A stretch of 63,561 nucleotides of DNA, taken from positions 658 through 64,218 of the forward strand of contig CAYORB010000002.1 of NCBI GenBank assembly GCA_964406295.1, written 5' to 3'. The notes beneath the pieces were generated by a model that had not been told where the DNA came from, ran no database searches, and was given only the letters and a program-made list of their open reading frames with translations. Origin of the DNA: an uncultured Candidatus Peribacteria bacterium. GTDB taxonomy: Bacteria; Patescibacteriota; Gracilibacteria; UBA1369; LOWO2-01-FULL-3. Within the stretch, counting starts at the first letter, position 1. Each line of letters starts with the position of its first letter. A program made the translations under genes and the position numbers. Shown piece after piece: positions 14,591-39,124 of the stretch.

Positions 14591-14905
14591 ATGATCGAAA
14601 AGTTTTTCACCACAGAACAAGTTGCCAATATTCTTCAAGTTCATCCTTTCACCATTTTGAAATTCATCAAAGCTGGAAAATTGAAAGGAATCAAACTTGG
14701 ACGAGTCTATCGCATCAAAGAAAGTGATGTGAATGAATTTCTTGAATCAAGAATGACACAGAGCTCGCCAAAGAAAAAAGTAGTTGCTAAGCCTTCTAAA
14801 GAACCAAAAGCAGAACAAGCACCTCAAACACATAAAACTGAAAAACGTAGCCCTTACGACCTGGAAACAACAAAGAAGGATGACGATCATTACTATCTAA
14901 TCTAA
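14591..14905 (+). CDS. excisionase-family (MerR-superfamily) helix-turn-helix DNA-binding protein with a disordered K/E/P tail
   Basis: N-terminus FFTTEQVANILQVHPFTILKFIKAGKLKGIKLGRVYRIKESDVNEFLESR matches the excisionase-type HTH pattern (TIGR01764-like). The C-terminal ~50 aa are low complexity. Confidence 0.75.
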   Translation: MIEKFFTTEQVANILQVHPFTILKFIKAGKLKGIKLGRVYRIKESDVNEFLESRMTQSSPKKKVVAKPSKEPKAEQAPQTHKTEKRSPYDLETTKKDDDHYYLI

Positions 14906-15175: not shown

Positions 15176-15209
15176 CTAAAAAACTCTCCCTGCCCGGGAG
15201 GGTTTTTTT
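15176..15209. terminator. bidirectional rho-independent terminator between convergent units
   Basis: Stem CTCCC (15186-15190) pairs with GGGAG (15196-15200) around a 5-nt loop. An A-run lies upstream and T7 downstream, so a U-tail is available on both strands. Confidence 0.7.
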
Positions 15210-15276: not shown

Positions 15277-16407
15277 TCACCCCGGACATTGTCTTGAATT
15301 CATTGTGTCAGTTCCATCCAGCATCAACTTAAGCTTTGGAAAACTCTCGTCTATGATCTCAAGCAGACCATTCGAATCATTGCTGCGACCATCCAATTCG
15401 TTCACAAACATTTCTATCCCTTCGCTGCTATTCCCATATAAAACACTAAAATGCGCTCTCATTTCGGTTTCCATTTTATCAATTTCAAAGTCATGTTCTT
15501 GTAATATCATAGCGTTGAAAAGCTCAGATTGAGTGGGGGATGGTACATCACTATCAAAAGGGTTATCTGGAGCATTTTCCTTTGCACCAGCATAAAGTTC
15601 TGTTAAACCTTTTTTTGGCGGCATGCCGTTCACCTGTGCGGCAACAAAAGATCCCATAAAATCAACAAAACTATCGTCCGTAGTAAAAAGTTCTACGGTT
15701 TTTATACTGCTAATTTCTTTTCCTAGTTCTTTTGATTCTCTAGCAATTCCTTCACCTGCTTGCTTAAGACCACCATAATCCTCAGTGAAATGTTTATCAA
15801 ATTCTTTCCATTTTTTTTCAACTCCTTCCCAACTGCTGGATTCACAACGAATATAATTTTCTTTTCTATTCTGATATTTAATCTCTATGTTAAGAAAAAA
15901 ATCATCCAATTCTCTTTCAGTAAACATTCCTTCTTTTACATATTTTTCCTTCATTTCCCTATATATAAGATTGCGATCAACTGTTAGCTGATTATCATAA
16001 ATCCTAGTTTTCACAATATTATATGGCAAACTTAATAGTAGACCGCCATCAATAACATGTCTAACATAGTAAATCTCAGCTGTAATTTTATGATATGCAG
16101 CTTTTAATTGAGGCAATTTTTCATTTTCACAATTCAGAAAAGCTTTTCTAATATCACTGCGAATACTGTCCTGATAATCAACCAATCCAATAATATCTTG
16201 TGACTGGCATTGATTGCGATTTAGAACATCATTCCATGGTTCTATCACACCTTCCATTAAGCTATCGTTCCAAATCACAGAATCCAAAAATAAAGTGAAT
16301 TCAAAACCACCCTTTGCTGCACAGCGCATGATAGGTTCATCCTCAGCATAACCAGTTGAGCTAAATAGTATAAAAAATATTAAACTAATTGTTAGATTTT
16401 TCATCAT
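15277..16407 (-). CDS. secreted orphan protein (376 aa), last gene of the giant-protein operon
   Basis: Signal peptide MMKNLTISLIFFILFSSTGYA. The start overlaps the upstream stop (ATGA). C-terminus SFPKLKLMLDGTDTMNSRQCPG. Several conserved-looking Cys. Confidence 0.75.
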   Translation of the reverse strand: MMKNLTISLIFFILFSSTGYAEDEPIMRCAAKGGFEFTLFLDSVIWNDSLMEGVIEPWNDVLNRNQCQSQDIIGLVDYQDSIRSDIRKAFLNCENEKLPQLKAAYHKITAEIYYVRHVIDGGLLLSLPYNIVKTRIYDNQLTVDRNLIYREMKEKYVKEGMFTERELDDFFLNIEIKYQNRKENYIRCESSSWEGVEKKWKEFDKHFTEDYGGLKQAGEGIARESKELGKEISSIKTVELFTTDDSFVDFMGSFVAAQVNGMPPKKGLTELYAGAKENAPDNPFDSDVPSPTQSELFNAMILQEHDFEIDKMETEMRAHFSVLYGNSSEGIEMFVNELDGRSNDSNGLLEIIDESFPKLKLMLDGTDTMNSRQCPG

Positions 16408-18152
16408 GGTACATTTGGTTTTTCCTTGATCTTGGCAATGGCTTCAGTGTTAATTTTTCCATAAAGATCTCTGAAAGATTTGAATAAATTGTTCATATCT
16501 CGCATTTCCAATAAGACATTTCGCAGATAAAGCATTTGATTTGTTCCAGTATCCCCACTTTTATAAGTTTTAACTTGCTGAGCAGCTTTAGCAGCATATG
16601 AGTCAGAAGTTTCTTGTACTTGGTTTAAAATATCTATCTGACTACTACCTGAAGGTGCATTACTACGAATAAATTCACTAGCACCTTCAACTCCTGTATT
16701 AGCAGCGTCATCATCAGTAAATTGGATTTCTTGAAGTAACACAGGTTGATAGCGATTTGCAAAATCATTCCATTCATCAAAAATATTTTTACCAAAAATC
16801 AATTCATCATTAGCTGGAGTTGGTATGGGATTCCATATAGTAATAAACTGAATATTTAAAAGGCTGCCAGTTTTTTTACACTTCGCTGATTCCAATAAAT
16901 TCCCAGTTGCTTTGCCAGGTATAAGAGAATGACTCAAAGTTTTCTCCATTAGTTTATTAATTTTTTCTATTTCACATTGTATACAAGAATCTCCAGGATT
17001 ATAACTAGATAAAGTTTCTCTAATCAATTGAACACTAAGACACACAGATGCATTTGCTTGAATATATTCATTATCAGACCGCGCTGAAGCTCCAACAAAT
17101 TGTGGGGCAGGCGGTGATCCTCCAATGCTTTTAAAATTATCAATAAAGTCACCAACACCTTCCTTAGAAAAATTATTAACTGATCCACTGCCAGTATCAG
17201 GAAATCCAGGACACCAGGGACTACCCCAAGCACCAGCAGGAGCAGCTTGTAATTCTTCCTCTTCTTCTTCTAAATCTTCGTCATCATCTTCATCAAAACC
17301 AACAATACCATTCACATCATCTCCACCACCAGGTCCATTATTTCCATCATCTGCTACATCACGATCCGCTTCCTCTTCTTCAAATTGATCTATTGCATCT
17401 TTAGTGGGATCATCAGAGATACAAACATCTTCTTCTAAAATTTCAACCGGAACTTCTTCATCACCGATTTGCAAAACTGCAGCAGCGTCTTTTTCAGAAG
17501 TCAAAGCCAATCTATCAATCGCAACAGGAGTATCACTATATACATAATCATCAAAAGTTTCATCACGTTCAGTCGCATTATTAGGAGAATCAAGAGCTCC
17601 TACAAAATCCCCACCAACAGTACTAGCGGTTTCGTTAAAGAATAAAATCTTCTCAATAGTATCCAAATCATGAATCAAATCGAAACCTGAATCCGAAAGA
17701 TCACCATTAGCAAATATTTCACTTGGCTTAATGGCCATATCAACCTCTTGTTTTATATCATAAAGTTCTTTTATATCTTTGAAATCTTCCTGTGCATCTT
17801 TCAAAACAATCATTGCATCTTCCATAGTTAAAACTGTTCCTTTGCGGTCAGGTGAATTAAAAATTGGAGTCACAGAACCGTCCAAAACGGCTTGAGCTTC
17901 AGCTGTAGTCATACCATAATTAGCTGCTAAATCTCGCAATGCGTCTTTGTCTGGATATTCCATAGTCTTTTTATAAATGAGAAGATATAAATCCATTCCA
18001 TCTGCCAAATCAAAAACATCACTCCAAGAAAAGCTATCACTCGCAGCTCCATCACCATGAGCGATTTCGGCAACATCAACGCTAATCATTATCATAGTTA
18101 GGAAAACTCCTATGATAAGACCCCAGCTAATTGGTAAAAATTTTATTTTCAT
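16404..18152 (-). CDS. secreted or membrane-anchored orphan protein (582 aa) with an acidic Asp/Glu/Gly linker
   Basis: N-terminal hydrophobic segment ISWGLIIGVFLTMIMISV, acidic tract DDGNNGPGGGDDVNGIVGFDEDDDEDLEEEEEE, and a Cys-containing C-terminal domain with CIQC. The ATG immediately follows the upstream TAA. Confidence 0.75.
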   Translation of the reverse strand: MKIKFLPISWGLIIGVFLTMIMISVDVAEIAHGDGAASDSFSWSDVFDLADGMDLYLLIYKKTMEYPDKDALRDLAANYGMTTAEAQAVLDGSVTPIFNSPDRKGTVLTMEDAMIVLKDAQEDFKDIKELYDIKQEVDMAIKPSEIFANGDLSDSGFDLIHDLDTIEKILFFNETASTVGGDFVGALDSPNNATERDETFDDYVYSDTPVAIDRLALTSEKDAAAVLQIGDEEVPVEILEEDVCISDDPTKDAIDQFEEEEADRDVADDGNNGPGGGDDVNGIVGFDEDDDEDLEEEEEELQAAPAGAWGSPWCPGFPDTGSGSVNNFSKEGVGDFIDNFKSIGGSPPAPQFVGASARSDNEYIQANASVCLSVQLIRETLSSYNPGDSCIQCEIEKINKLMEKTLSHSLIPGKATGNLLESAKCKKTGSLLNIQFITIWNPIPTPANDELIFGKNIFDEWNDFANRYQPVLLQEIQFTDDDAANTGVEGASEFIRSNAPSGSSQIDILNQVQETSDSYAAKAAQQVKTYKSGDTGTNQMLYLRNVLLEMRDMNNLFKSFRDLYGKINTEAIAKIKEKPNVP

Positions 18153-18836
18153 TTATTGGCATTGGCTCGACGTTGAGTCGATAAATTTACTAGGAAATAA
18201 CATGACTTCTTTACGTATATCTTTTAATGATAATTTGTATTTAACTAGATTTTCAATAATTTCTTGGTATTTACGGTGCAGGGGATAAGCAATAGCAAAT
18301 TCATTATAAGCAGCCACAGTTCCTTCCATTATCGCTTTAGATTTATCCACTTCTTTCTCAATCGCATTGCCCTTTACAATCAATTCATCTATACGCCCCT
18401 GTATGCTGGAACTACTGCCGTCATGCAAACTATCTTTGATAGATTCAACTTGTCTCACAAATTCAAGGTAGATATAAAGAGCTTCCATAGAAACACAATA
18501 ACTACTAATATTTTCACCATTTTCTTCACATTTTTGTACTATAGTTAATAGACTATCTTTTTCTTTTTCAATATTTTCAGGTACAAGAAAATTTTTTCTT
18601 TTCTTAAGATCTTTCATAAAGGCATCGTCTTCCAAAAGTTCTTTCAAAGCATCAATTTTATCATTGAATAAATCATTCATCTCTTGATGATACAAATCGA
18701 ATATTATCTTGTAATGAAGATCAGAATCTCTGAAACTCAAACTTCTATTATTATCAGCATAAATAGTATAACTACCATATAAAACAGTATTTGTTATAAG
18801 AGCTACAAGCAAACTAATTATAATTCTTTTTATCAT
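18153..18836 (-). CDS. secreted helical orphan protein (227 aa)
   Basis: Signal or anchor peptide MIKRIIISLLVALITNTVLYG. There is a 0-nt spacer to both neighbouring genes. C-terminus LFPSKFIDSTSSQCQ. Confidence 0.7.
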   Translation of the reverse strand: MIKRIIISLLVALITNTVLYGSYTIYADNNRSLSFRDSDLHYKIIFDLYHQEMNDLFNDKIDALKELLEDDAFMKDLKKRKNFLVPENIEKEKDSLLTIVQKCEENGENISSYCVSMEALYIYLEFVRQVESIKDSLHDGSSSSIQGRIDELIVKGNAIEKEVDKSKAIMEGTVAAYNEFAIAYPLHRKYQEIIENLVKYKLSLKDIRKEVMLFPSKFIDSTSSQCQ

Positions 18837-19433
18837 TTAAATTGTTATACATTCTTGTAAGAAACCAGGTAGTTTTGATTTAAAAGTCATAAAGAAACCA
18901 TACATTTTTGCTATATGCATATTTAAATCACGAAGTTGACTATTTATAGACTTATATTTTTCTAACATAATAGTAGTTCTTTTTTGAGCGTTAGTATTTT
19001 TTATATGTTCAATCATTCTTTGTTTACCAAGATCTAAGTATGAATCTGTGATTTGCGAACAACTTTGAATAGCATCTATTTCATCAATCTTAACATTACT
19101 AAAACCATCTAACCTTCTAACACCAGTTTCCAAAGCATGAAAATTTTCCTGAATTTTCAATTTGTATTGGCTGTATCTAGCAATAGCAATATTTGTAAGA
19201 GAATCATTCGAACTTTTATTTTGGAAATTAGTTTCCAAAAATTTCAAGAATTCAATCAACTCTAAATCATAAACAGGTACTAAAGTATTTTGACAATCCG
19301 TAACAGATTTACTGCTTATCTCAGATGACAAAGTGTTTTTCAATAATTTTAATTCTTCTTCAGGAGATACAGCATAAACAATGTTTCCAAGTAGTAAAAA
19401 AAGAATAATTGTAAGAGAGATAAATTTTTTCAT
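18837..19433 (-). CDS. secreted helical orphan protein (198 aa)
   Basis: Signal peptide MKKFISLTIILFLLLGNIVYA. The start overlaps the giant-gene stop by 1 nt (TAATG). C-terminus TFKSKLPGFLQECITI. Confidence 0.7.
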   Translation of the reverse strand: MKKFISLTIILFLLLGNIVYAVSPEEELKLLKNTLSSEISSKSVTDCQNTLVPVYDLELIEFLKFLETNFQNKSSNDSLTNIAIARYSQYKLKIQENFHALETGVRRLDGFSNVKIDEIDAIQSCSQITDSYLDLGKQRMIEHIKNTNAQKRTTIMLEKYKSINSQLRDLNMHIAKMYGFFMTFKSKLPGFLQECITI

Positions 19434-22400
19434 TAATTTGATATTAATACTTCATTACCTTTTGAGAAAATATAACTTCGTTTTTCAGGATCTTCATAAT
19501 CAACATGAATGACAGGATAGAAAACATCTCCAGGCAGTACATCATCACCGTTTATAAATGTGGATACACAAGGACATGTATTACATTCAGCCGGTTCTAT
19601 ATATATGCCAGGCTCCCCATCTTTTGGTTCTGTAGCAATTCCAGTATTAGCTCTAGCAACAGAATCATCGCCGCTGTTATCATCGTCATCACCACCGTCA
19701 CCACCATCATCCATAGAACCATCACCACCGTCATCGCCATCATCCATAGAACCATCACCACCGTCATCACTAGATCCATCACCATTATCTCTATCATCAT
19801 CGGCATTGTCACTACCATTATCATCCATACCATTATCAAAATCTTTAGAACCACGTTCATCACTAGCATCAAGAGGGTTACTAAAACTCGCAACTTCATT
19901 TCCGTCAATTACACCACCCCCATCAGTATCAGGATTATATGGATCAGTTTTATAAATAAATATCTCAGCATTCGTACTAAGCCCATCATGGTCATGATCT
20001 TCAGATTCAGAATCACGAGGATTTAAACCATAAAGACATTCTTGTGAATTCAAAATTCCATCCTTATCAGGATCTTCATTTGGGGCATCTATATTGTATT
20101 TGCTTTCACAGAAATCAGACATTCCATCACCATCAGCATCAATTTCTTGGCATGAATGTATATCAAGAACTCTCTGTGTCATTACTAGCAATTCATCAAA
20201 AGTCATTTCTTTATCAGCTAAGGTAGCTTCTTGTTCTGTGATTATGTAATTATTAATCAAAAGTTTATCTTCAGTCATATATGGATCCAAATTTTGAGCA
20301 ACTAACAAAATTTCATTATACCAAGGATCACCTTCACCAACATCAGTCAAATCCACTATTTTTTCCATCTCAAGCGCACGTAAAATTATTTTCACAGATT
20401 CAGCTCTAGTTATTGTATTTAAAGGTCTGAATGGTAATAATCCTGAACTATCTTCTCTATTTCCTTTATAACCTTCCACTAATCCAAGCAAAGTAGCTTC
20501 TTTGATATAAGGATAATCACTATCCAAATTTTCTGAATCAAAAATAATATCATTATATCCCTCTCCTTCAGAGTAGGCTTCATAAGCTTCCGGTTTTCTT
20601 GGAATAATACAAAGCATATCCAACAATACTCTCACAAATTCCGCTCTGCTAACTAAATCAGCAGAATCAAATATACGTCCTTCTTCCAAATCCAAACTCT
20701 TAATAATATCAGCAAATTCACCTTGAGTGTAAGTATAGGCGCTGTACAGCGCTCCTGCAGATGGAGTACGAGGACTTCTAAATGGCAAATCATCTGAGCC
20801 AACTACGGTAAATCCATTAGCAGCTATATAGATTTCTGCTACTGCTGTCCCATTAACTGAAATAACAAAAATCAAAGGACTATTTTTCTGAAGATTTTCT
20901 TTCTTTTCTAAGCTAACTCCATCAGTCATGATAATCACATTTCCAGATGTATCTATCAAAGCCAAAGTTTCTTCCGTATCTCTATTTACAAGTATGGCAG
21001 CACCAGGATTACTTGGATCATCAGCTGCTAATTGAATAAGATCATATTGATCATCAATAATTACATCATTCATATTTACACCATTTAGATCTTTATAATT
21101 TGATTCATCAATTTCAAATTCTTCGTGTAATACCACATCAACATTCGGATCTGCGACTATTACAACTGAGCCCAAAACAACTCCGTCAGGACTAACTATA
21201 TCTGTTCTGGTAGGGGAGACAGGAACATGAGCTGGCTGCACAACTGCTTCATATCCATCAACTAAGATGTTAATATTTCCAGTCTCAGGATGAATTTCAG
21301 CAACTACTTCTTCGTTACTATTTTTAACTAAAATCATCCCTTCATCTTCAAAATCATTAATTTGATATTCGCCATTTATATCAGTTTCATTTTTCTCAAT
21401 TATATCCGTTTTCAATACCAACTTTGTTTTTCCGTCTACAACTCTGTAAATATAACGGTCTCTAATCAACGCAAAAGGAATATCAGACAAACGCGGTGAC
21501 ACCATACCAGTTGCAATATAAGTCCTGGCAAAACTAGGATTCAAACTAATTTCAGGAGCAAAAACATTTACTGTAATTTTTTGATTCGAAGAATTTTTAT
21601 TTTCATCTATCAAATGTAAAACAAATTCACGCTGACCTATGTCACCTTCATTAATAAAAGGACCGATTTTAAATACAAAACCATCTTCATTTAAATCAGG
21701 ATAAATACGTTCATCTAAAGTAGTAAACACCATGCCAGGAGTAGAAGAGTAAGGCTGTGTTTCTAAATAAGCTTCGACTATTTCACCATTAGCATCAAAA
21801 GATTTACTCGCATCGATTCTCAATTCTTCATATATGGACATATCAAATACAGAGGAATTAATCACAGGAAATGGAGCCTCAGTATCCGCACAAGATTGAG
21901 GAGCCAACAATGCATGCGTTGAACTAAGAGATCTTTTACCATCAGGAGTTAAGGCATAAACATATGCGTAATAATTAGCATTTTCTAATTCCAAACTTAC
22001 TTGAGGTTTATCTTTGTTTGATAATTGAAGTATCTGCTCTTCAGCTAAGTTAATCTCCGATAATAAAATCTGACTTTCTTTACTATCTATTGGATTTGTA
22101 AGAGCAATATATCTTTGATCAAGAATATCTCTATCAGAACCATAAATAGAAGATTTCAAAATAATCTCATAAGCGTAAATATCATCACCAGCACTTAGCC
22201 AGCTCAAATCAGCGGTACCACTATTTAAATACGGAGAACTCAAACCTTGCACAGCGATTTCACCATCATTTAGATAATCACTAATTGAAGTTCGGCTTTC
22301 TATTTTCTTACCCTTTGGTTGATCTTCGATTATTTCCTTATTCTCTTTCAAATAAACATCACCACCTAAAGAATAAACAATATCAACATCACTATCCTTA

Positions 22401-31400: not shown

Positions 31401-33256
31401 GCCTGATCGAATGTATAGGCGAAGCTTAAGTTACGGCCATTCACAGACTTAATTACATCACCTTCCTTTAAAATTTTTTCAAACGGACCTACATAATCAT
31501 CTTCCTCAATAGGATTATGAATAAAAGCAGGTATTCCATAATCAGGATTAGATTCAACAATAGCAGCAGTTTCAGTTATACCTCCTGAGACAAGAGTCCC
31601 GCTATAAGTTTGATTAGTCACTTTATATAATTCTTCTGGTGACACAATTCTGGTATTCACTCCAGCGGTGACAACTGGCATAGCAGTAAGAGGATTATCA
31701 GAACGCATTGACCTGGTTAAAATAGAATAATCCCCATCAACGCCTTCATCCTTAGGATTAAACTGTAAATTCTCATCAAAATACTCAGACTTAGTGGAAC
31801 CCAAATAAGGGGCGCATAATTTCGCACTTTCCAAATCATTTGCATTGATACCGTTTATGTACAAAGCACCATCTTTATCATTCAAATAATGAAACCGCAA
31901 AACATGATTAGTAATCCCCAAGGGTGGATCATCACCAAGAATTTCATCACCAAGTTCACCAAGCAATCCTTCCTCAGATTCATCAGTAACAAAAACAGTA
32001 AATTCTCTACCATTTTCACCAAAAGAACCTGTTAAAACTGTGGAATCCAATAGAGGCAAAGGCTGCTCAATTTTCTCAACTATTTCATTGATCTTTTTTT
32101 CAAGAGCATCGTTCACACTACGAATATAGTAACGTGTATAATCATCTTTCATACTGATAAGTTCAGGCATGCTATCAATATCCTTAGCGCTATAACGCCC
32201 CATATAATCAGCCCAATCATTTACACTGGAAATATAACGATTTAGAACCTTGTAATAAGGCAAAAAAGCTTGATCGATCACAGATTTCGAATAAATATCA
32301 GGCAAAGCAGCCATAGAATCAGAATTTTGAAGCGCATCCAAAAAATTCCCTTCACTAGGTTTCAAATCATTATCCTCACTAGCTTCAAGATCAAAATCTA
32401 TAGGTAAATCTTCAATCACACTCCCGTTTACCTCTTGAGCCCAAAATTTATTATATCGCATGTAGATCAGATCCTCACTAGCTTCAAGATATTTAATATA
32501 ACGTTTATAAACATCAGGATGCATCTGTTCTTCTTCATGCACAAGATCACCAAAGAAAAGTTTTCTATCAAAATCAGCAAACATAGGTTCGCCATCATAA
32601 TAGAGATGATTTTTATCAAAAAACTCAGCCAAATCATTCACACGTTTAGCTTTTATAACACCATGCCAAGCTTCAGGTTTAGGAAAACCAACATTTTCAT
32701 TTCTTTCAAAACTATTAGTTTTTTCGTCATAAATATAAGCTTTATCAACAAAATCAGTATAAGGAAACATACTAATAAACTTATTCCCTGATTTACTGAC
32801 TACAGGTAAAGGCACATCACCTATCAAAACCACACCTCTTAATTGATTTTCATGCGAACCATCCCCAGAAATATAGAGATTTTCAAGAGCTTCAGACAAA
32901 GTCACAACAGTATCGATCTCTTTATCAAAAAACAAAATCTTAACATCAGTAAGATCATTATTCTCTATCAAATCATCAGCATAACGACTAATTCTCTCCT
33001 CAATTCCATCTTCCCTTAAACCGTATTCATCCTGTAATTCAGTTTCTATATCCACACCACGCAAATCTTTATCCACAACCAAGACAACTAGGTCATAAAG
33101 AGTATCACTATCATTCTCCGCTTCCACCACTTCAACCTGCTTTATTTTTGCAGCATAAACTGGCATAGGAAAGACAAAAATCTGAGTAAAACTCAAACAA
33201 AAAAGAGAAGTATAAACTACAAATTTTTTAAGGAAAAAGGGAAGAGTCATAAGCAT
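19433..33256 (-). CDS. 4607-aa secreted multidomain giant surface protein (Ig-like array, FG-GAP/VCBS-like, DUF11-like, SLH-like, TSP3-like Ca-binding repeats)
   Basis: One uninterrupted 13.8-kb ORF with a signal peptide ending VYA.
- Invasin-type Ig-like repeats, about 27560-29170 (LYDEFGNL, LLDSFGNLV).
- FG-GAP/VCBS-like, about 26050-26470 (DMNGDGREDLLLV, DVNNDSYDDIVVG, DMNLDGCEDLVVS).
- DUF11-like, about 25380-25700 (GDKIDYIITLKNNSNSNINNLMLSD).
- SLH-like, about 20360-20690 (SRAEFVRVLLDML, TRAESVKIILRAL).
- Thrombospondin-type-3-like DxDxDG repeats, about 19890-20150.
- Acidic D/G tract, about 19650-19880. Confidence 0.9.
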   Translation of the reverse strand: MLMTLPFFLKKFVVYTSLFCLSFTQIFVFPMPVYAAKIKQVEVVEAENDSDTLYDLVVLVVDKDLRGVDIETELQDEYGLREDGIEERISRYADDLIENNDLTDVKILFFDKEIDTVVTLSEALENLYISGDGSHENQLRGVVLIGDVPLPVVSKSGNKFISMFPYTDFVDKAYIYDEKTNSFERNENVGFPKPEAWHGVIKAKRVNDLAEFFDKNHLYYDGEPMFADFDRKLFFGDLVHEEEQMHPDVYKRYIKYLEASEDLIYMRYNKFWAQEVNGSVIEDLPIDFDLEASEDNDLKPSEGNFLDALQNSDSMAALPDIYSKSVIDQAFLPYYKVLNRYISSVNDWADYMGRYSAKDIDSMPELISMKDDYTRYYIRSVNDALEKKINEIVEKIEQPLPLLDSTVLTGSFGENGREFTVFVTDESEEGLLGELGDEILGDDPPLGITNHVLRFHYLNDKDGALYINGINANDLESAKLCAPYLGSTKSEYFDENLQFNPKDEGVDGDYSILTRSMRSDNPLTAMPVVTAGVNTRIVSPEELYKVTNQTYSGTLVSGGITETAAIVESNPDYGIPAFIHNPIEEDDYVGPFEKILKEGDVIKSVNGRNLSFAYTFDQAIAESYNEVVKFMDAIKDEELDSLKDFKFNVASKDEIMRFDPNNPLAQLPAPLEIWDDADELISSPKLKDIRVLSVLGVINFEYYRGNEKRSENVSFTVEVHEDTDDIKQTTDEDPESEPDIEFAVFPKNIEFPGDWGDSDGALFTLYENDVLGYNSQAYDASAGCNANSAFRNSDRCLGRVASIPVLDPAGSLAPIKMTIPGQDEPVLQFPVNVKKTNDFINSGRVSDWENSVDIYKFPSNDFEDIDDVYLNSCFGVGLPSYQKGGSDSNPYEFVLDISTGNPGAAPTFDLDWYGQLMESFALFADSRLGDEPDYVHGGAPKDSSDFSPKEGIWLGMDELNASEIMLNTLGESVSLANFSDHFGLFDGIDNDGDGIVDFKFIDEDEDGVAETKFYDYEEANPAFGLDGENLPEISRKLLSHETTYTIPFGSESFRQKVTEENWGQVFNTDLILNVNPHQFESENGSEISSIIVHNEPTPYTISQQIKSKNSFSLPIDNPRYVAFQTQPTTPKAHSGLTAKVDYINLFDEEISDISDVSKAVSDKAKELSRLPGAQMLIDPSAAPNTYTFEEIETEIVNKYLATVVTNITDYPISGFNLRRASTAKLSDALDWLNMNIDEKHHYVLEYYLNGDKEHDAYINDSSNGYEASYLVFDGQEDYFGMSFNKDLPEEDSEFNALEQNIGVGQGRDIEAIEEEGDEDDWEFVWLDQFLKELEIFIDGFTSVPNFEQSCGFNPNFHFDDNEIPLTRIDRIELEVDRYVASTKTSDEVIVSGTAYDENANAIVNAKELGNLEIVQEEVAFDVTSSDSKQFENGKVEFKLRASDVVGMATLRVKTDEGLFSNAVQINSTNNEIKIFSDEDALVADGEGIMEFEVQVWGNDGIDSDVVHQLKFSLDNELAEFVGENVVSTENGIAFVSIKTGTKTGFVNLRADVISEGIYPYAKKEIQLEAGEPVAIEVEANSFLLVANNQSKSHFTISLYDEFGNLANNDFSQVAVFSNDVVEINPSVDMSSVIVGTQLNTMEGVAELDVIAKDQVGLAHLIFVLMDRNLENRFLEVGERWREIDFVNEIGASVTLDVVDSVELAVDIVDRNFNTVDEILANKSDIAGFEVTMLYEDQVVGSYNGPIDFEILTSSFGGFKNQAAEKMKAGVVKAADALFQSSSLTGNVEISITVPGFASTNAKLKTVAGEATQIELISSEKIISTNPEESVFLQARLLDSFGNLVSKDNGRRVEFAVSEAGDELIDFEAASALSLEGIASTQIVSKGKSGKVNFVAKSPDLDSAYLSLDVKKFIRASDVEKFAPRSLYTSLLGGDFGDELLRENLAQKILYNGQSQVVSAITADPDGYKKLISVDAYGVIELMSNQIESVLVPASKKLDYHKIILSDRIAKKELATFLVKPKELALSLLENEQELNAKEEGVYVKIISPQSNLEAKLIGDEIYIEEGSERHVRIDKLGRVFLNSDDFSVRLPEENDNLSLSHLTFVVTYNELPYAVVSINQNFRQNVRKMNFDSSRNNLFPGLAIQLASNSKKYGLEDSFSRNSTAHPMGVYLVDKENTLAPEHKPGFAQTSLEDVNNNFGLGFQGENKHMLLFAAGNSVGESHMPYASEVGIIYGDPMISLDIEEDLVSNGSGYSRDLGKQLYNGQEQIKEMLEFDMNGDGREDLLLVYKNGVVKLLENSISNRNYVEKGIVLNIFGEVLSVAKIDVNNDSYDDIVVGTNESCNAEEECVSLYMNNGGGFDRYSLDLALDGKKIYEMKSDDMNLDGCEDLVVSNSSGQISVYHNKIKDGECVGLDSEAPRDWDFGFEIDQNQNQKDSVFIHYPGIRLVENKVLQFSLKSDEPKPGDELAQQAIAAQAAFESNSQMAESYIPALRFSREFDFVQLSSDTKFGVNSSKIAIDINGENADVGDKIDYIITLKNNSNSNINNLMLSDATALSMELLPDTLTCIDVNCGDELTWQETGMSMRSHVIEGISVPANSMRNIKYSMAIKQMPKVRFDIGNNFTDYKDAANNKDTRLDIMVRPELNPEGIVSYLYSSGIDSLGRVKHLKYNAVPVVDNNESGDSQIPTPDVIQGYVDQQSHDSDYNGCSDMWDGAFEKHENAADALANKMENALSLLRCSGGGCSPIPYNYAAFVPDGATPGTAALAIGTPNLPYFMPLYPSSAPSSGRWYISPTLSGGLGTAVCVGPGPGHASPCYAIAVPGGIPGASGICDSVIGAVGDAIADAKEAVVDSEIGKAVIVSDGSNTADIEGGEFDSGFGSDNDTVSASLGGNVKIPGFPSIITNWLDNQMDEIFNKLLDFPKFYLILPDVVPFIKNNVKATSEVNFQSFHDFATTLSSIPLIQIEGKEIAVRIPAVSQKEIDKYKEQWKKWKKDMQKQLDERLAVWKCDENEAKKTVCDKITVDMNDFINGVSDLLDLLDQLASLPRKILNYRHLEAKYATQIVCYLDAIMNFTGGYISKQQKIVESWMKAVETAIETFKKWQVLLDLSADYQTACDQCKNDRFSKLSLLLQIFVAIPDPPIIEMPKWPDLIVDLSQIKTGVKIVWPDVTFNPEPIKLPDLPSITLPEFLPEVSFEIPGFDVADIPTFVLPDLPDLPPLPLPQLPDIPRPPKIPEIPNAVLQVVSKLKPVFRVLCLLKNGLVPVPESALETEIETLTQPSVQAVLPIISQLGMQWPPIQYDYVKEIRVTAKLRFDVETEFIYNKAKKGFKVWNEKVKNMVKNINKYTQFPYGEILSNLIQKAIDEQFEKALENAGGAIDLPFGDEQIDINVSGPSASLDSPEFAEFEQIKTAMEDVNKILTEYISSLDKYDYPETHNLVASQTLLGNNDPLLNRSLADVKFSISNEKLSDNPAIKKLASLRGSLIDYADGIYDSNELLEDIDNLEDFGRILAQSDEQRPRLVATSHPSSSGSETVEFSFFGDAIEEKLTEAADEIEERVLLAGDITIDQRELAKKQHNSRPQAKGFYIVGNDGLNENILNYTFELKKKTHTLFSNVDKDSDVDIVYSLGGDVYLKENKEIIEDQPKGKKIESRTSISDYLNDGEIAVQGLSSPYLNSGTADLSWLSAGDDIYAYEIILKSSIYGSDRDILDQRYIALTNPIDSKESQILLSEINLAEEQILQLSNKDKPQVSLELENANYYAYVYALTPDGKRSLSSTHALLAPQSCADTEAPFPVINSSVFDMSIYEELRIDASKSFDANGEIVEAYLETQPYSSTPGMVFTTLDERIYPDLNEDGFVFKIGPFINEGDIGQREFVLHLIDENKNSSNQKITVNVFAPEISLNPSFARTYIATGMVSPRLSDIPFALIRDRYIYRVVDGKTKLVLKTDIIEKNETDINGEYQINDFEDEGMILVKNSNEEVVAEIHPETGNINILVDGYEAVVQPAHVPVSPTRTDIVSPDGVVLGSVVIVADPNVDVVLHEEFEIDESNYKDLNGVNMNDVIIDDQYDLIQLAADDPSNPGAAILVNRDTEETLALIDTSGNVIIMTDGVSLEKKENLQKNSPLIFVISVNGTAVAEIYIAANGFTVVGSDDLPFRSPRTPSAGALYSAYTYTQGEFADIIKSLDLEEGRIFDSADLVSRAEFVRVLLDMLCIIPRKPEAYEAYSEGEGYNDIIFDSENLDSDYPYIKEATLLGLVEGYKGNREDSSGLLPFRPLNTITRAESVKIILRALEMEKIVDLTDVGEGDPWYNEILLVAQNLDPYMTEDKLLINNYIITEQEATLADKEMTFDELLVMTQRVLDIHSCQEIDADGDGMSDFCESKYNIDAPNEDPDKDGILNSQECLYGLNPRDSESEDHDHDGLSTNAEIFIYKTDPYNPDTDGGGVIDGNEVASFSNPLDASDERGSKDFDNGMDDNGSDNADDDRDNGDGSSDDGGDGSMDDGDDGGDGSMDDGGDGGDDDDNSGDDSVARANTGIATEPKDGEPGIYIEPAECNTCPCVSTFINGDDVLPGDVFYPVIHVDYEDPEKRSYIFSKGNEVLISN
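19705..19768. repeat. 33-nt-period tandem duplication inside the acidic tract of the giant gene
   Basis: The 31-nt string CATCATCCATAGAACCATCACCACCGTCATC occurs at 19705-19735 and again at 19738-19768. It encodes GGDGSMDDGDD / GGDGSMDDGGD. Confidence 0.85.
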
Positions 33257-33427
33257 TAATATACAGCCACAATTTTAACATATAAAGGGACATTTCTCAC
33301 TGTTTTTTTACTTTTCTATGCATCATAAAAAGCTCAACTAGCGGCCTCTTGATAAAAGTAAAAGCCCAGCCAGATTTCTCCAGCCGGACCTTTCAAAATT
33401 CAAACTAAATTTTTAATCCAAACTTTC

Positions 33428-33928
33428 TTATTGGATCAATGTTAAATAACAATCTCCACCATCAGTTTTCAAAACAGGATTCTTATTAGCAGCAACTACA
33501 CAATCATAATTCCCACTAGGATCATTTTCAACATTTGTAATAAATCCGTGACTATAGTCTAAGCCTGCATCAAATTTAATATATTTATATTGTCCAGTAC
33601 AACCATCAGTAACATTATTTGGGTCAGGATCAACAGGGAAAACACCTGAAAAATCAGCTAAATTATCAGAAATCAATTTACCAATAGTACCAGCACCACC
33701 AGCAGCAGCATCATTAGCTACACATCCTCCATCAGCAGGTAGAACAGCCCTTTCAAGTATTTTTGATACCATAAAATTTTCTAATTTTTGAACTGATGCC
33801 AGTCTTTGTGCATCATTTCCTTTTCCAATCGCTCCGAACAGTGTTGGCAAGAAAGCAACAGCCAGAATACCGATAATGGCTATTACTATCAGCAATTCAA
33901 TAAGGGTGAAACCTTTTCGATTTTTCAT
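33428..33928 (-). CDS. type IV prepilin (N-terminal cleavage/methylation domain)
   Basis: MKNRKG|FTLIELLIVIAIIGILAVAF: short basic leader, Gly at -1, Phe at +1, Glu at +5 and a hydrophobic alpha1 helix. 166 aa with C-terminal Cys pairs. Flanked by 99- and 171-nt spacers. Confidence 0.9.
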   Translation of the reverse strand: MKNRKGFTLIELLIVIAIIGILAVAFLPTLFGAIGKGNDAQRLASVQKLENFMVSKILERAVLPADGGCVANDAAAGGAGTIGKLISDNLADFSGVFPVDPDPNNVTDGCTGQYKYIKFDAGLDYSHGFITNVENDPSGNYDCVVAANKNPVLKTDGGDCYLTLIQ

Positions 33929-34027
33929 AATTAATGAGGTTAAAATCTACAAAGCCTATTCTAGTTGAAAGAAAAGCCCAGTGCTACAGTTAAAGGTTGA
34001 CGTGAGCCAACATTATAGTCTCGCAAC

Positions 34028-35284
34028 TTAAAGTGCACCTGATAAATTAGCTAGTTTCATAATAGGCAACATAATAGCTGCTACAACAGTTCCTACTGTA
34101 AGGCCAACAATAACCAAAATTATCGGTTCTATAATTTTTGAAATACCAGCAACGGCCGTATCCACTTCTTCTTCATAAAATTCAGCTACTTTCTCAGTAA
34201 TTTCGCCAAGTTGAGCTGTTTTTTCACCAACATCTATCATATTTACAAGCATAGGTGGGAAAAGCGAACTTTCACTAAGATTTTCTGCTAAAGGAATACC
34301 TTGTTTAATATCCTCTATAGATAATAGTAATCTTCTTTTATAAACTTCATTGCCTATAGAATTCGCTGTGATTTCCATAGTTTTCACAATGGATACGTTA
34401 CTATCTAGAAGGTTGTTCAAAGAACGAGCAAATCTGGATAAACAACTTTTTTTCAATAATCCTCCAAAAATAGGAATACTTAGCTTAAATTTATCTAATA
34501 AATACATTCCTTCTTTAGTTTTTTTCAAAAATGAGAAAATCAGAAACATTGCACATAAGCCAATTGCAAGCAGCATTCCATTTGCAATTATAAAATCACT
34601 GGTAAATACCACAGCTTTAGTAATTCCAGGCAAATCTCCACCCATTGAATCAAAAAGTTGAGTTAATTGAGGTATAACATAAACCATCATGGCTACAATC
34701 ACAGCAATCAATAGGGAAAAAATCACAATTGGATACATCATCGCACTCTTAACTTTTGACTTCATCATATAAGCTTTTTCAGTATCAGTAGCCAGGTTTG
34801 CCAGTACTTTGCTTAATTGCCCAGAGGCTTCACCAGATTGAATCATACCCATTTCAGCTTCATGAAAAATATCTGAAAATTGTAACATTGAAACTGATAA
34901 ACTTTCCCCTTCTTCAATAGTTTTAGCCATATCAGTCACAACAGTAGCCATTCTTGGGCTATCCTGCATCTGTGAAACTAGTGATTTCAAAGCTTTCACC
35001 ATTGGAATACCAGCATTTATCATTACTGATAAAAGATGATAAAAATTAGCTTTTTCTTTCACTTTCACACCGGATTTAGAGACCATATAGTTATTAACCT
35101 TGTCATACCAGCGTTTAAAAAAATTACTACTGATGATTTTTTTGCTTGAGATTTGATCTAAAACAACACCCTCAGAGTCTTCTTCTATAGTTAAGGTAAC
35201 ACCGCTACTGGCAGCCGATATCTCTCCAGCGAGGTTGAAACTCTCTGTACCACTTGTTGCGAAATTATCTTTTGCTTCTGGCAT
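34028..35284 (-). CDS. pilC: type IV pilus/T2SS platform protein (PilC/GspF family)
   Basis: 418 aa with the two-fold T2SSF architecture: three TM segments, duplicated cytoplasmic helical domains, typical C-terminus GLTVGTVVAAIMLPIMKL. Confidence 0.88.
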   Translation of the reverse strand: MPEAKDNFATSGTESFNLAGEISAASSGVTLTIEEDSEGVVLDQISSKKIISSNFFKRWYDKVNNYMVSKSGVKVKEKANFYHLLSVMINAGIPMVKALKSLVSQMQDSPRMATVVTDMAKTIEEGESLSVSMLQFSDIFHEAEMGMIQSGEASGQLSKVLANLATDTEKAYMMKSKVKSAMMYPIVIFSLLIAVIVAMMVYVIPQLTQLFDSMGGDLPGITKAVVFTSDFIIANGMLLAIGLCAMFLIFSFLKKTKEGMYLLDKFKLSIPIFGGLLKKSCLSRFARSLNNLLDSNVSIVKTMEITANSIGNEVYKRRLLLSIEDIKQGIPLAENLSESSLFPPMLVNMIDVGEKTAQLGEITEKVAEFYEEEVDTAVAGISKIIEPIILVIVGLTVGTVVAAIMLPIMKLANLSGAL

Positions 35285-35285
35285 T

Positions 35286-36701
35286 TTATTCTGATTTACG
35301 AGCTACTCTGTATACTTCTTCAAGGGTGGTAAGTCCTTCCAGGGCTTTTATAATTCCAGCCTGTTCTAGCGTTACCATTCCGTTTCTTTGTGCAGCTTCT
35401 TGTATCTCCATAACAGAGGCACTATCTGCTATAAGTTTTCTCAATTCATTATTCATTCTAAAAACTTCATATAACCCAACTCGGCCATGATATCCAACGT
35501 TATTACATTCAGCACAACCGGGTGCATCGTAAAATTTCAGTCCGCTTAGAAGGGCAGGGTCCACCTCATCTTTCACTCCCAATTTATCCATAGCGTTCTT
35601 AACAAGTTCAAGTATATCAGGGCTAACTACAGCCTCTTTTTTGCATTTTTCACAAATCCGTCTAACCAACCTTTGAGCAATAATTAGTTCAATTGTTGAT
35701 GTCAAAAGATAGGGTTGAATACCCATATTCACAATACGAGTAATTGATTCAACAGCAGAATTAGTATGCAGAGTTGAGAATACCAAATGACCTGTCAGCG
35801 AAGCTTCGATCGCAGTATTTCCAGTTTCTTTATCACGAATCTCACCTACCATTATAATATCAGGATCCTGACGAAGAGCTGATCTCATACCTGAAGCAAA
35901 ATCATATTCAATATCATGATGAACCTGGCTTTGATTTAAACCATCCAGTTGAATTTCCACAGGATCTTCAATAGTCAAAATATTCACATCAATTTTATTT
36001 AATCTACTTAAGCAAGAATATAGAGTTGTTGTTTTACCTGAACCTGTAGGACCTGTATTGATAATAATCCCATTTGGAGATTGCAAAGCTTCCTGCAAAT
36101 TTTTCAAACCAATACCAGAAATACCAAGATCAGGTAGATCTGGGATTTTTCTAGATTTATCTTGTATACGCATTACTATCTTTTCCCCATTAACAGTTGG
36201 TAGAGTGGAGATACGTAAATCCATTTCACGACCATCTTTCGTTGTAACATCAGCACGACCATCTTGAGGTAACCTCTGTTCATCAATCTTCAAATTGGAC
36301 ATGATTTTTATTCTAGAAACAACGGCTGGATGAAGATTTACCGGGTACTCAACAATGGGTCTCAAAACACCATCAATTCTATAACGAATTCGTACTGTGC
36401 TTTCCATACTTTCTATATGTATATCACTAGAACCTGAATCCAATGCATAACTAATAGCCACCATAACCATTTGTGGCACATTAGCTGACAAAATAGCATC
36501 TTGAAGTTGTTTCAATTTATTTTCTGCCATAGGTGATTGCACACCGGCAGCAGCTTGAGCAACCACAGTAGCTTGAGCAGTTGGAGCCACAGTTCCATTG
36601 GCCACCAAATCAGGAACAGCCGATACTTGAGTAGCAGGGGCGGCCCCCCCAGACACAGGCATTGCCTGTTGAACTTGTTGTTGAGTTAGGGGATTATCCA
36701 C
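35286..36701 (-). CDS. pilB: type IV pilus assembly ATPase (PilB/GspE family)
   Basis: Walker A GPTGSGKTTT, Asp box, Walker B IIMVGEIRD, His box GHLVFSTLHTN, tetracysteine CEKC...CAEC. The N-terminal ~60 aa are Q/A/V-rich low complexity. Confidence 0.93.
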   Translation of the reverse strand: MDNPLTQQQVQQAMPVSGGAAPATQVSAVPDLVANGTVAPTAQATVVAQAAAGVQSPMAENKLKQLQDAILSANVPQMVMVAISYALDSGSSDIHIESMESTVRIRYRIDGVLRPIVEYPVNLHPAVVSRIKIMSNLKIDEQRLPQDGRADVTTKDGREMDLRISTLPTVNGEKIVMRIQDKSRKIPDLPDLGISGIGLKNLQEALQSPNGIIINTGPTGSGKTTTLYSCLSRLNKIDVNILTIEDPVEIQLDGLNQSQVHHDIEYDFASGMRSALRQDPDIIMVGEIRDKETGNTAIEASLTGHLVFSTLHTNSAVESITRIVNMGIQPYLLTSTIELIIAQRLVRRICEKCKKEAVVSPDILELVKNAMDKLGVKDEVDPALLSGLKFYDAPGCAECNNVGYHGRVGLYEVFRMNNELRKLIADSASVMEIQEAAQRNGMVTLEQAGIIKALEGLTTLEEVYRVARKSE

Positions 36702-36707
36702 AGTTAT

Positions 36708-37319
36708 TTATTGAAAATAAGCGTTAATTTGTACAGAGAAACTGATGATTTTAGGACCATCATCTTCATCTTCGTCTTCAAAATTTAGGCGTATAGATGA
36801 AATATCCATCAAACGAGTATTTCCGTTCAAAGTTCCTGAATTTTCAATTAAGTGAAGAAATTTTATGAAATTATTGCTTGAACTCCTGATAGTCATTCTC
36901 AGAGGCAAGACGCTATATTTTTCCTTTTTCACAACATTTTGAAAATTAATATTCGAAACTTCAAAAGGATTATGTCTTTTCGCTAGTTTTTGTTCATATG
37001 AATCAATTTGCCTTGTCAGCTCAGTATAAGCGTTGTCCGGTGGGAAGATATCCGCCAATTTTGTATTAATTTCTTTATCCAAAGCATCAAATTCAACTTT
37101 TAAAGAATTATAATTTGTTTCTTCATTAACAGATTCTTCTGATAAAAAAGCAACAAATTCTTCACCACTTCCTATACCACTTTTAGCCATATCATATCTT
37201 ATCCATTGTTTATAACCGTAAAAACCAAGTAGAACAATTAATAGTAGACAGGCAAAAGCATAGACCTTAGTTTGGAATTTTTGCTGTCTCTCTAAAATTT
37301 GATAAGTAGTATTGCTCAT
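36708..37319 (-). CDS. PilO-like bitopic pilus alignment protein (tentative)
   Basis: 203 aa: short cytoplasmic N-terminus, one TM (VYAFACLLLIVLLGFYGY), a coiled-coil segment, then an alpha/beta-looking C-terminal domain. It sits directly upstream of pilB. The assignment rests on architecture and context only. Confidence 0.5.
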   Translation of the reverse strand: MSNTTYQILERQQKFQTKVYAFACLLLIVLLGFYGYKQWIRYDMAKSGIGSGEEFVAFLSEESVNEETNYNSLKVEFDALDKEINTKLADIFPPDNAYTELTRQIDSYEQKLAKRHNPFEVSNINFQNVVKKEKYSVLPLRMTIRSSSNNFIKFLHLIENSGTLNGNTRLMDISSIRLNFEDEDEDDGPKIISFSVQINAYFQ

Positions 37320-37321
37320 AA

Positions 37322-38536
37322 TTAATTGTTAGCCAAGTTCAGTGATAATTTTAATATGGCAGTATAGCCATCCGTCAAAGAACCAGATTTATTGAACGAA
37401 TTCATATCAGCACCTTCAAAAGTATCTGAGTCATTGAATTCATCAATCAGATTAGCGATCATCGTAAAATTAGTAGTATCAAATCTTTTCGTCTCTCCAA
37501 CAATAGAAATTCTTCGATTTACACTATCAAAATCATAGCTGGTATAACGTATACCACCCAGTTCGTTATAATAATCATCAGTATAATATCCATCCACTGC
37601 AATAGTTCTCAGGTCAATTTCATCCATAATATCTGACCATTTGATTCTTTTTTCTTTAATATTTTGTATTGAAGTAAGGTTGCTTGTTAAGAGTGAGTTC
37701 ATATCTTTAACAAATACATAAACATCTTCATCTGACATAGCATCAAAATCAGAATTTATAATCAGATTTTTTAACTCAGTATTATTCACTAATGCTATAG
37801 TTTGAGTATAAGTTTTAAATTCTCTTAAAGCTTCTGTTTCCTCATTTTCAGCTAAAGACTGAGCTTTTTTGCTTAGAACAGTTGTTAGTTTATCTCTAAA
37901 CATGGTCTCCAAATCACCACCTTCATTAGTCAAATCCACAGAAATATTTTTAATATAAAGCTCACGGGAATTATTGATTGCCACCTTAATATTTTCTTTC
38001 AATTCAGTCATTTGTTCTAAAGATTCACGTTTTTCTGATTTTGTAGAAGTTTGGCTTACAGAAACATCATAATTTTGTAAATAACTATCACCACTATAAC
38101 TAAAAATATCTAAATATCCTTTGATTTGTAGGTATCTATGAAGATTAATATTAGTTTGTAGTTTAATAATTTCCGCATTAGTCACGGCAAGGTCTTGTGA
38201 AACATTAGGAATATCCAGGTTATTGGTGATAGATTCCAGGCTTTTCGTTAGTTGAGTACTAAAAAAAAGAAAAGAACCAATACCAGCCACAACCAAGAAA
38301 CTAGCTGTAATTTTCAAAATAAGTAATAATATACTTTTTGGAGGTTCCATTCCTTGAAGCAGAGATTGATCTATCTCTGGTGCTATCCCAAGAATATTTT
38401 CTTCTCCTGTAGCTGTTTCTGTAGAAACAATACTGCTTACAAGAGCAGAATCATCAGCCTTTGTATCTTTGATATCAAGAGGATTGATAGGCTGAGGTTC
38501 AGGTGCAGCCGCTTCAGTCTGTTTTTCTTCTGCCAT
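37322..38536 (-). CDS. bitopic membrane protein, first gene of the pilus cluster (possible PilN-like; not an actin-like PilM)
   Basis: 404 aa: disordered acidic N-terminus, a single TM (ILLLILKITASFLVVAGIGSFLFF) and a ~310-aa external domain. There is a 2-nt gap to the next gene. Confidence 0.55.
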   Translation of the reverse strand: MAEEKQTEAAAPEPQPINPLDIKDTKADDSALVSSIVSTETATGEENILGIAPEIDQSLLQGMEPPKSILLLILKITASFLVVAGIGSFLFFSTQLTKSLESITNNLDIPNVSQDLAVTNAEIIKLQTNINLHRYLQIKGYLDIFSYSGDSYLQNYDVSVSQTSTKSEKRESLEQMTELKENIKVAINNSRELYIKNISVDLTNEGGDLETMFRDKLTTVLSKKAQSLAENEETEALREFKTYTQTIALVNNTELKNLIINSDFDAMSDEDVYVFVKDMNSLLTSNLTSIQNIKEKRIKWSDIMDEIDLRTIAVDGYYTDDYYNELGGIRYTSYDFDSVNRRISIVGETKRFDTTNFTMIANLIDEFNDSDTFEGADMNSFNKSGSLTDGYTAILKLSLNLANN

Positions 38537-38560: not shown

Positions 38561-38589
38561 ATTATAGCAAAAAAACACGCAAGAGTAAA
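38561..38589 (-). promoter_or_regulatory. candidate promoter of the pilus cluster
   Basis: On the minus strand: TTTACT (38589-38584), 17-nt spacer, perfect TATAAT (38566-38561). It lies 25 nt upstream of the ATG at 38536. Confidence 0.5.
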
Positions 38590-38602: not shown

Positions 38603-38637
38603 ACAAAAAACCTCGATTCTAAGATCGAGGTTTTTAT
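38603..38637. terminator. rho-independent terminator after rplL (bidirectional form)
   Basis: 9-bp stem AACCTCGAT (38609-38617) pairs with ATCGAGGTT (38624-38632) around a 6-nt loop. An A-run lies on one side and a T-run on the other. Confidence 0.8.
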
Positions 38638-39092: not shown

Positions 39093-39124
39093 AATTATAA
39101 AAGTTAATTATTTATTAAATAAAA

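Follow-up and report, generated by a model that had tools for sequence, protein, structure and literature searches.

In the Omnitrophota, giant genes lie behind gspE/pilB, gspF/pilC and small class III signal-peptide genes, and a role in attachment is proposed for them (bioRxiv 10.1101/2023.11.21.568195, West-Roberts et al.). Two further reports describe large extracellular cysteine-rich proteins together with type IV pili in Candidatus Peribacter riflensis and the Peribacteria, again with attachment as the proposed role (PMC4736985), and type IV pili combined with giant surface proteins in the related predator Vampirococcus (PMC8080830). Here we describe a ten-gene locus (15277..38536, minus strand) in a 63,561-nucleotide (nt) stretch of DNA from an uncultured Candidatus Peribacteria bacterium (assembly GCA_964406295.1, contig CAYORB010000002.1), the whole of which is called the window below. 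Five genes for a type IV pilus machine (g1, g2, PilB, PilC and a prepilin) are followed by a gene for an exported protein of 4,607 amino acids (aa), referred to as the giant, and by four small, translationally coupled genes (g7 to g10). We favour, as a reading that we judge just about evenly poised, that these are two adjacent, separately transcribed operons of a lineage-wide surface locus of the Peregrinibacteria (Peribacteria), the product of which is a complex anchored by S-layer homology (SLH) repeats and used for attachment in concert with the pilus.

Like the Omnitrophota loci, this locus places a very large surface protein gene directly after pilB/pilC-type and class III signal-peptide genes. 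The proteins themselves differ. The Omnitrophota giants exceed 30,000 aa and have many transmembrane segments and SecA-like domains, whereas the window giant has 4,607 aa, a transmembrane segment only in its signal, a predicted SLH anchor and no SecA-like DEAD domain among its Pfam matches. The organisms belong to different phyla, gspD is absent here, the window giant matches none of the annotated giant-protein families, and no counterpart of g7 to g10 is described for the Omnitrophota giant loci in the available part of that report (bioRxiv 10.1101/2023.11.21.568195). With Peribacter riflensis and Vampirococcus, which belong to the same or a sister lineage, the locus shares large exported cysteine-containing proteins, some of them with FG-GAP, alongside type IV pili; the cassette of pilin, giant and four small genes, the SLH anchor, a CxxCxC motif and the four small-protein families are not described in the available parts of those reports (PMC4736985, PMC8080830), nor were they found described in the literature that we searched.

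Three other systems resemble the giant in part. It shares three SLH repeats of the TRAE-motif type with the SLH-anchored S-layer and S-layer-associated proteins of Gram-positive bacteria (for example Paenibacillus alvei SpaA, 6cwc; Bacillus anthracis Sap, 3pyw). In the giant, which is 4,607 aa long, these repeats are placed close to the C-terminal end, with TSP3 repeats and a CxxCxC domain behind them; the other ~4,000 residues are unrelated, and four dedicated partner genes accompany it. PilY1 and PilC1 are likewise large non-pilin proteins with a propeller-type domain and Ca-binding sites that are encoded beside pilin genes, but the giant is four times larger, carries an SLH wall anchor and belongs to a separate operon behind a terminator. 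In the sprC-sprD-sprB-sprF cluster of Flavobacterium, the gene for a giant surface protein shares a transcript with genes for a few small accessory proteins, which its display requires. SprB differs in being highly repetitive and exported by the type IX system of a diderm cell. The window giant is non-repetitive and predicted to be Sec-exported and SLH-anchored, and no sequence relation between the two was found, although no search aimed at one was made.

Two predicted transcription units for the pilus and the giant

The ten minus-strand open reading frames (ORFs) of the original prediction were all recovered at the same coordinates. The gaps of 2, 6, 1, 99 and 171 nt along the pilus genes to the giant were verified, as were the junctions giant/g7 (TAATG), g7/g8 (TAAATG), g8/g9 (TAAATG) and g9/g10 (ATGA). 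Matches to T2SSE, T2SSF and N_methyl bear out the identities proposed for three of the pilus genes: a PilB-type assembly ATPase (35286..36701; Pfam T2SSE, E value 2.3e-128; 58–83% identity to relatives), a PilC platform protein with three transmembrane-like regions (34028..35284; Pfam T2SSF, 1.4e-52, in two stretches) and a 166-aa prepilin with the class III signal peptide KGFTLIELL (33428..33928; Pfam N_methyl, 1.6e-10; TIGR02532, 4.5e-9).

The two bitopic proteins encoded upstream of PilB had been regarded as orphans, the second of them with a PilO-like call. This call stands on the Pfam PilO match of g2 (203 aa; 36708..37319), which at 5.7e-4 and 20.5 bits is weak and falls under the Pfam cut-off of 22; four of nine g2 orthologs also match PilO. 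The 404-aa g1 (37322..38536), with one transmembrane segment at residues 66–94, has no Pfam match in its window copy, while PilN is weakly matched by two of its nine orthologs (best 9.5e-4), and g1 precedes the PilO-like gene in all relatives. The orphan status is thus better replaced by the simplest reading of the ortholog Pfam matches and gene position, that g1 and g2 are likely divergent PilN and PilO. PDB sequence and profile searches with g1 and g2 gave no significant match, and the two profiles are unrelated except in the transmembrane segment. PilM, PilD and PilT were not found among the scanned ORFs of the 63-kb window, a result whose scope is the window and not the organism.

A consensus scan recovered the promoter claimed 5' of the pilus operon as a promoter-like site (38561..38589, minus strand; TTTACT-17-TATAAT, TG-extended, 10/12 matches, a consensus match only). 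The claimed rplL terminator was located as a hairpin at 38606-38635, and the claimed bidirectional terminator after the last gene as a terminator-like hairpin that ends the giant operon (15184..15200, both strands, hairpin scan). The proposal of one 23-kb unit from a single promoter to a single terminator was not confirmed. Two elements that had been missed lie within the 171-nt pilin–giant gap, and opposite-strand or toxin-antitoxin genes occur there in some relatives. The first element is an intrinsic terminator after the pilin gene (33360..33393, minus strand), with a 15-bp GC-rich stem and then a U-run on the coding strand (free energy −20.1 kcal/mol). It is followed by a promoter-like site for the giant operon with a TG-extended −10-like element (33272..33300, minus strand; GTGAGA-17-TAAAAT, upstream TG, 9/12 matches, consensus only and weak). 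Because the gap holds a strong terminator and then a promoter-like site, two transcription units are most likely, a pilus operon and then a giant operon with the four coupled genes. A strong terminator of this kind is typical of the gene for an abundantly expressed major pilin, which the pilin here would be.

Both g9 and g10 end in TGA, so the standard genetic code applies; on this ground, and because the 4,607 codons of the giant read through without interruption in table 11, an alternative code was rejected. Apart from a tRNA-Gly, an Rfam scan of the window found nothing.

The giant protein and the four coupled genes

The giant (19433..33256, minus strand) is predicted to be an exported surface protein, with an N-terminal signal-like segment and no further transmembrane segment. 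Its identity to orthologs is ~40% over the full length and ranges from roughly 20 to 64% along it. Pfam and NCBIfam recognise only islands in it, and these include the signals proposed for it earlier: FG-GAP, immunoglobulin-like (Ig-like; Invasin_D3, GH2_C5, DUF11) and TSP3-type Ca-binding repeats. The FG-GAP region, of the integrin-type beta-propeller class (residues ~2266-2400, 26057..26461; Pfam FG-GAP, 1.6e-6), is a conservation peak, at 57–64% identity. Orthologs of the giant score better than the window copy (TSP3_bac 5.8e-8, FG-GAP_3, SLH 8.4e-13). A conserved N-terminal domain of 530 residues (residues 90-620, 31397..32989), with ~50% identity among 12 orthologs and thus among the better-conserved regions of the giant, belongs to no recognised family and gave no Pfam match and no PDB sequence match, and the PDB sequence search with the whole giant was also without a significant match.

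Near the C-terminus, residues 4180-4370 (20147..20719) form three SLH repeats with TRAE-type motifs, which match Pfam SLH and, as a profile, solved SLH trimers in the PDB. The window copy scores 1.2e-5 and 25.6 bits against a cut-off of 20.8, and Pfam SLH is present in 11/11 orthologous segments; the profile aligns to ~148 residues of the SpaA SLH trimer (6cwc) and also to Sap (3pyw). The giant had been called wall-anchored. That part of the claim is carried by the triple SLH module, while an LPXTG motif and a C-terminal hydrophobic segment are missing. With a triple SLH module, the giant is therefore predicted to be bound to the wall non-covalently and not via LPXTG, which corrects the sortase-type annotation. 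Sortase/LPXTG anchoring was rejected in view of a sole hydrophobic window, the N-terminal signal, and a C-terminus that reads ...KGNEVLISN.

Two other adhesin types were considered and set aside. Fibrillar adhesins combine a stalk of tandem-repeat domains with an adhesive domain (PMC8286594). A self-BLASTP of the giant returned zero internal repeats at E <1e-3, and a repetitive fibrillar adhesin was rejected on the lack of internal repeats and the isolation of the Ig-like matches. A type I-secreted RTX adhesin was ruled out by a cassette without ABC transporter or membrane fusion genes, by the Sec-type N-terminus and by Ca repeats that are of TSP3 type and not of RTX type.

The cysteines of the giant are strongly conserved, with 31/31 in the mature protein kept in 5/5 orthologs. 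A CxxCxC motif (CNTCPC, residues 4558-4563, 19568..19585) lies ~50 residues before the C-terminus and is shared by all nine aligned copies, of which L058, L093 and L095 are the most distant (L numbers are our labels for related loci). An acidic Asp/Gly-rich insert (DDGGDGSMDDG...) at residues ~4470-4545 (~19650-19900) occurs in the window copy and is missing from the five aligned orthologs.

The four small genes follow directly on the minus strand. g7 (18837..19433) encodes an exported 198-aa protein, the start codon of which overlaps the giant stop (TAATG), and g8 (18153..18836), with a 0-nt gap to g7, an exported protein of 227 aa; each has three conserved cysteines, the last lying 4 residues from the C-terminus in g7 and being the penultimate residue in g8. 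g9 (16404..18152) encodes 582 aa, which begin with an extended hydrophobic segment and a helical N-domain and continue with a variable acidic linker and a Cys-rich C-domain with CxxC. g10 (15277..16407), which overlaps g9 by ATGA, encodes an exported all-helical protein of 376 aa with five conserved cysteines, the last 3 residues from the C-terminus. N-terminal hydrophobic export signals are present in all four proteins and class III (pilin-type) signal peptides in none. The hydrophobic segment of g9 (~21 residues) is a possible signal anchor.

The expectation that the small proteins match no characterised family was borne out by Pfam, NCBIfam and PDB searches with sequences and profiles: g7, g8, g9 and g10 gave zero matches in Pfam, NCBIfam and PDB sequences, singly or as profiles. 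Paralogy among g7 to g10, g1 and g2 was rejected, pairwise similarity being not significant. At 90% identity the g10 family falls into 83 clusters, none of which has a name other than 'hypothetical protein', and an exhaustive search gave 301 representatives of the g9 family at 50% identity. The AlphaFold2 model of g10 (76-sequence alignment) is all-helical, with a mean predicted local distance difference test (pLDDT) score of 73 and core residues 60-190 above 85. The model of g9 (98 sequences) has a mean pLDDT of 67.6, with a helical N-domain that is modelled confidently and a long helix towards the C-terminal end. Foldseek searches of the PDB with either model gave no match with E <1. Residues ~370-470 of g9 (SCxxCE, KATGN, AKCK, NPIPTPxND) are the most conserved in sequence and the least confident in the model (pLDDT ~40-50); this part of the protein may fold only in a complex.

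The conserved cysteine number is odd in g7 (3), g8 (3) and g10 (5), and in each of these proteins one cysteine lies 1–5 residues from the C-terminus. Three spare C-terminal cysteines on one side and the three-cysteine CxxCxC motif of the giant on the other suggest intermolecular disulfides that would link g7, g8 and g10 with the giant, a suggestion that we infer from cysteine counts and positions.

Under our preferred reading, operon 1 would make a type IV pilus from PilN-like and PilO-like proteins, the PilB ATPase, the PilC platform and a major pilin. Operon 2 would make the Sec-exported giant, held on the wall non-covalently by its three near-C-terminal SLH repeats, so that ~4,000 residues with the FG-GAP propeller, the Ig-like modules and the conserved N-terminal head domain would project outward. 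The exported proteins g7 to g10, whose genes are translationally coupled, would be made in fixed proportion, and they may assemble with the C-terminal region of the giant into a stoichiometric extracellular complex, probably disulfide-stabilised, with g9 as possibly its membrane-proximal member. Such a complex would be an organelle that attaches the cell to a host, to prey or to a surface, and it would be used together with the pilus, which would make contact and pull while the giant complex holds. We regard as unlikely a far more specific version, in which the products form a five-protein organelle specific to the Peregrinibacteria: each cysteine of the CxxCxC motif would be disulfide-bonded to the lone C-terminal cysteine of g7, g8 or g10, g9 (with its CxxC and possible membrane anchor) would catalyse or scaffold this bonding, and the whole would work obligately with the type IV pilus as a host-capture device.

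Conservation in relatives and competing explanations

Searches with the giant retrieved 12 loci from species-representative genomes at ~40% identity over the full length. Ten are labelled Peregrinibacteria/Peribacteria and the others Nitrospirota and Gracilibacteria. The gene content of the latter two, L006 (JAUVQE010000014; Nitrospirota) and L008 (JAOZTS010000052; Gracilibacteria), is yet Peregrinibacteria-like, which suggests that their labels reflect mis-binning or lumped taxonomy. A profile of giant residues 90-620 added 80 metagenome loci, with identities from 63% down to ~22%. Neighbourhoods were read by local tblastn and ORF analysis.

The order rplJ, rplL, g1, g2, PilB, PilC, pilin(s), giant is retained wherever contigs reach. 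Linkage of the giant cassette to pilus genes, which had been proposed from the window, is thereby found in relatives as well: of 83 loci, at least 79 have a prepilin gene on the upstream side of the giant, in 56 of them as its immediate neighbour, and PilB/PilC were found in 42 of the 45 loci having at least 4.5 kb of upstream DNA. The proposal that the giant and the four small genes form one coupled cassette also gained support, with the order giant-g7-g8-g9-g10 identical in all ten related loci that reach g10, even where g10 identity falls to 21-24%. Cassette gaps are at most 21 nt in the eight loci measured (L002, L003, L004, L010, L012 and L093-L095), and in L096 and L097 the same order is seen with gene calls that abut or overlap.

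The pilin–giant junction varies more. Among 61 related pilin–giant spacers of 30-400 nt, 48 contain a hairpin with a T-tail. The deepest, marine lineage (L085-L090) lacks the terminator and has pilin–giant gaps of 8-36 nt; in one of its members, L087, rplJ-rplL is inverted while g1 through giant is unbroken. In L065, L066 and L068, PilB/PilC do not occur within 4-7 kb and the pilin still precedes the giant; the genes upstream include a CHASE2 cyclase, AbiEii, Fic and an M23 peptidase. Opposite-strand ORFs lie between pilin and giant in L005, L013 and L014. Other insertions at this place are three PIN-like toxin genes in L063 (2243-4674; judged by eye from their N-termini), an AbiEii-like gene in L004 (1235-2510; judged by eye) and a Fic gene in L065 (4943-5938). 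Toxin-antitoxin-type genes have entered the surroundings of this junction repeatedly in relatives, as would be expected of a hot spot for insertions.

Several observations weigh against a joint attachment apparatus. Gene order is conserved in relatives all the way from thrS to rplJ: rplJ-rplL lies upstream of g1 almost everywhere among the related loci, and the window, L096 and L097 all have HTH_17, uvrA, PrsW, recF and thrS after g10. Since these housekeeping flanks are equally syntenic, the pilus–giant adjacency alone does not prove joint function and could be inherited gene order. A terminator separates the operons, and toxin-antitoxin or opposite-strand genes are tolerated there in some lineages. 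Domain scans identified no adhesive domain with a known ligand in the giant. The conserved Cys-rich core of g9, with its CxxC, is modelled at low confidence, and we infer the physical association of g7 to g10 with the giant from translational coupling and cysteine arithmetic only. The functional link between pilus and giant is thus plausible but unproven.

The alternative that survives best is that the two operons are neighbours by descent and act independently, the pilus operon in motility or DNA uptake and the giant operon in making an S-layer-associated structural or protective protein with its subunits. The synteny of the flanks on both sides (rplJ-rplL upstream; HTH_17, uvrA, PrsW, recF and thrS downstream) and the conserved terminator between the operons agree with it. 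So do the unrelated genes inserted among PilC, pilins and giant in some relatives, and the three further SLH proteins in the window, which point to SLH surface proteins being common in this organism. Yet in 56 loci the gene next to the giant on its upstream side is a pilin, and in most others a pilin is found 1–3 ORFs away. A pilin still precedes the giant in L065, L066 and L068, which have no PilB/PilC within 4-7 kb, and the gap between the two genes is just 8-36 nt in the deepest lineage. In addition, an analogous pairing of giant and pilus/type II secretion genes is described for the unrelated phylum Omnitrophota (bioRxiv 10.1101/2023.11.21.568195). On balance, we consider independence of the two operons rather unlikely.

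The same Omnitrophota arrangement, with gspE/gspF and class III signal-peptide genes upstream of the giant genes (bioRxiv 10.1101/2023.11.21.568195), would also fit a pilus-like machine with a role in secretion or assembly. As a type II or Com-like pseudopilus, it would help to push or thread the giant and its partners through wall and S-layer, as has been proposed for the Omnitrophota giant proteins. A minimal cluster of PilB, PilC, PilN/O-like proteins and one pilin, with PilT, PilD and PilM not among the scanned window ORFs, is consistent with such a device, and so is the conserved pilin-to-giant order. We find it distinctly improbable, however: the N-termini of the giant and of g7 to g10 are all of the usual Sec type, and in what is presumably a monoderm cell, export by Sec alone could be enough; the absence of PilT and PilD concerns the window and not the rest of the genome; and the strong terminator after the pilin gene is typical of an abundant major pilin. 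Lastly, it is very improbable that the giant is a pilus-associated tip adhesin of PilY1/PilC1-like function with g7 to g10 as priming or adaptor subunits, for although it is encoded right after the pilin gene(s) and has a beta-propeller-type FG-GAP module and Ca-binding repeats, an SLH wall-binding module is hard to square with a dynamic filament, the PilY1 family (Pfam Neisseria_PilC) is not matched by the giant or by two orthologs, g7 to g10 are without class III signal peptides, and a terminator stands between pilin and giant.

Within the candidate phyla radiation, the Peregrinibacteria form a widespread branch that has not been cultured, and we know of no described hosts or mode of attachment for them. 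For this lineage, the SLH-anchored complex that we favour would make the locus a concrete, testable and strong candidate for a cell-attachment apparatus, conserved across the lineage. It adds four exported protein families without detectable relatives of known function or fold, and it revises annotation: SLH anchoring takes the place of sortase anchoring in the prediction for the giant, and PilN and PilO are the likely identities of the two bitopic proteins that had been taken for orphans. After the Omnitrophota, it would be the second, independent case of giant surface genes behind pilus/type II-secretion-like genes, and this recurrence may point to a design that ultra-small bacteria living as episymbionts or predators have in common.

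Neighbouring genes and further observations

A convergent gene of the HTH_17 family (MerR/excisionase-type; 14591..14905, plus strand; Pfam HTH_17, 7.4e-14) follows g10 in the window and lies at the same place in all eight loci that reach it, the most distant among them (L002, L003, L004, L012, L093, L095, L096 and L097). It may be a dedicated regulator, or merely part of the collinear block.

Elsewhere in the window, three paralogous SLH proteins of ~420-440 aa are encoded at 44698-45978 (plus strand), 47406-48662 (minus) and 51784-53103 (minus), with E values of 1e-19 to 1e-22. From these sequences, SLH anchoring is evidently in wide use in the organism, which probably has an S-layer. In one sublineage of the relatives, an extra SLH protein of ~1,450 aa is encoded between PilC and the pilins (L051 3552-7892; L057 3428-7795; L063 1-930); Pfam detects SLH in L051 and also in L063, where the ORF is truncated at its 5' end, and the L057 ORF is assigned by size and position. 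An ORF of 696-761 aa occupies the place between PilC and the pilins in L006, L033 and L034. A CHASE2 adenylate cyclase gene lies directly 5' of the pilin in L066 and L068, and L068 also has an AbiEii gene near the pilin–giant junction (3263-4114).

Two large window ORFs, at 72-3380 and 7312-11067 (both plus strand; 1102 and 1251 aa), have no Pfam match, Lys/Glu-rich charged termini and no obvious signal peptide, and L097 carries a 1104-aa ORF at a position comparable to theirs. On the other side of the locus, rplJ-rplL (38658-39658, minus strand) lies next to the pilus operon. The usual bacterial neighbours of rplJ-rplL are rpoB-rpoC, which do not adjoin it here, and this detachment is common to nearly all related loci.

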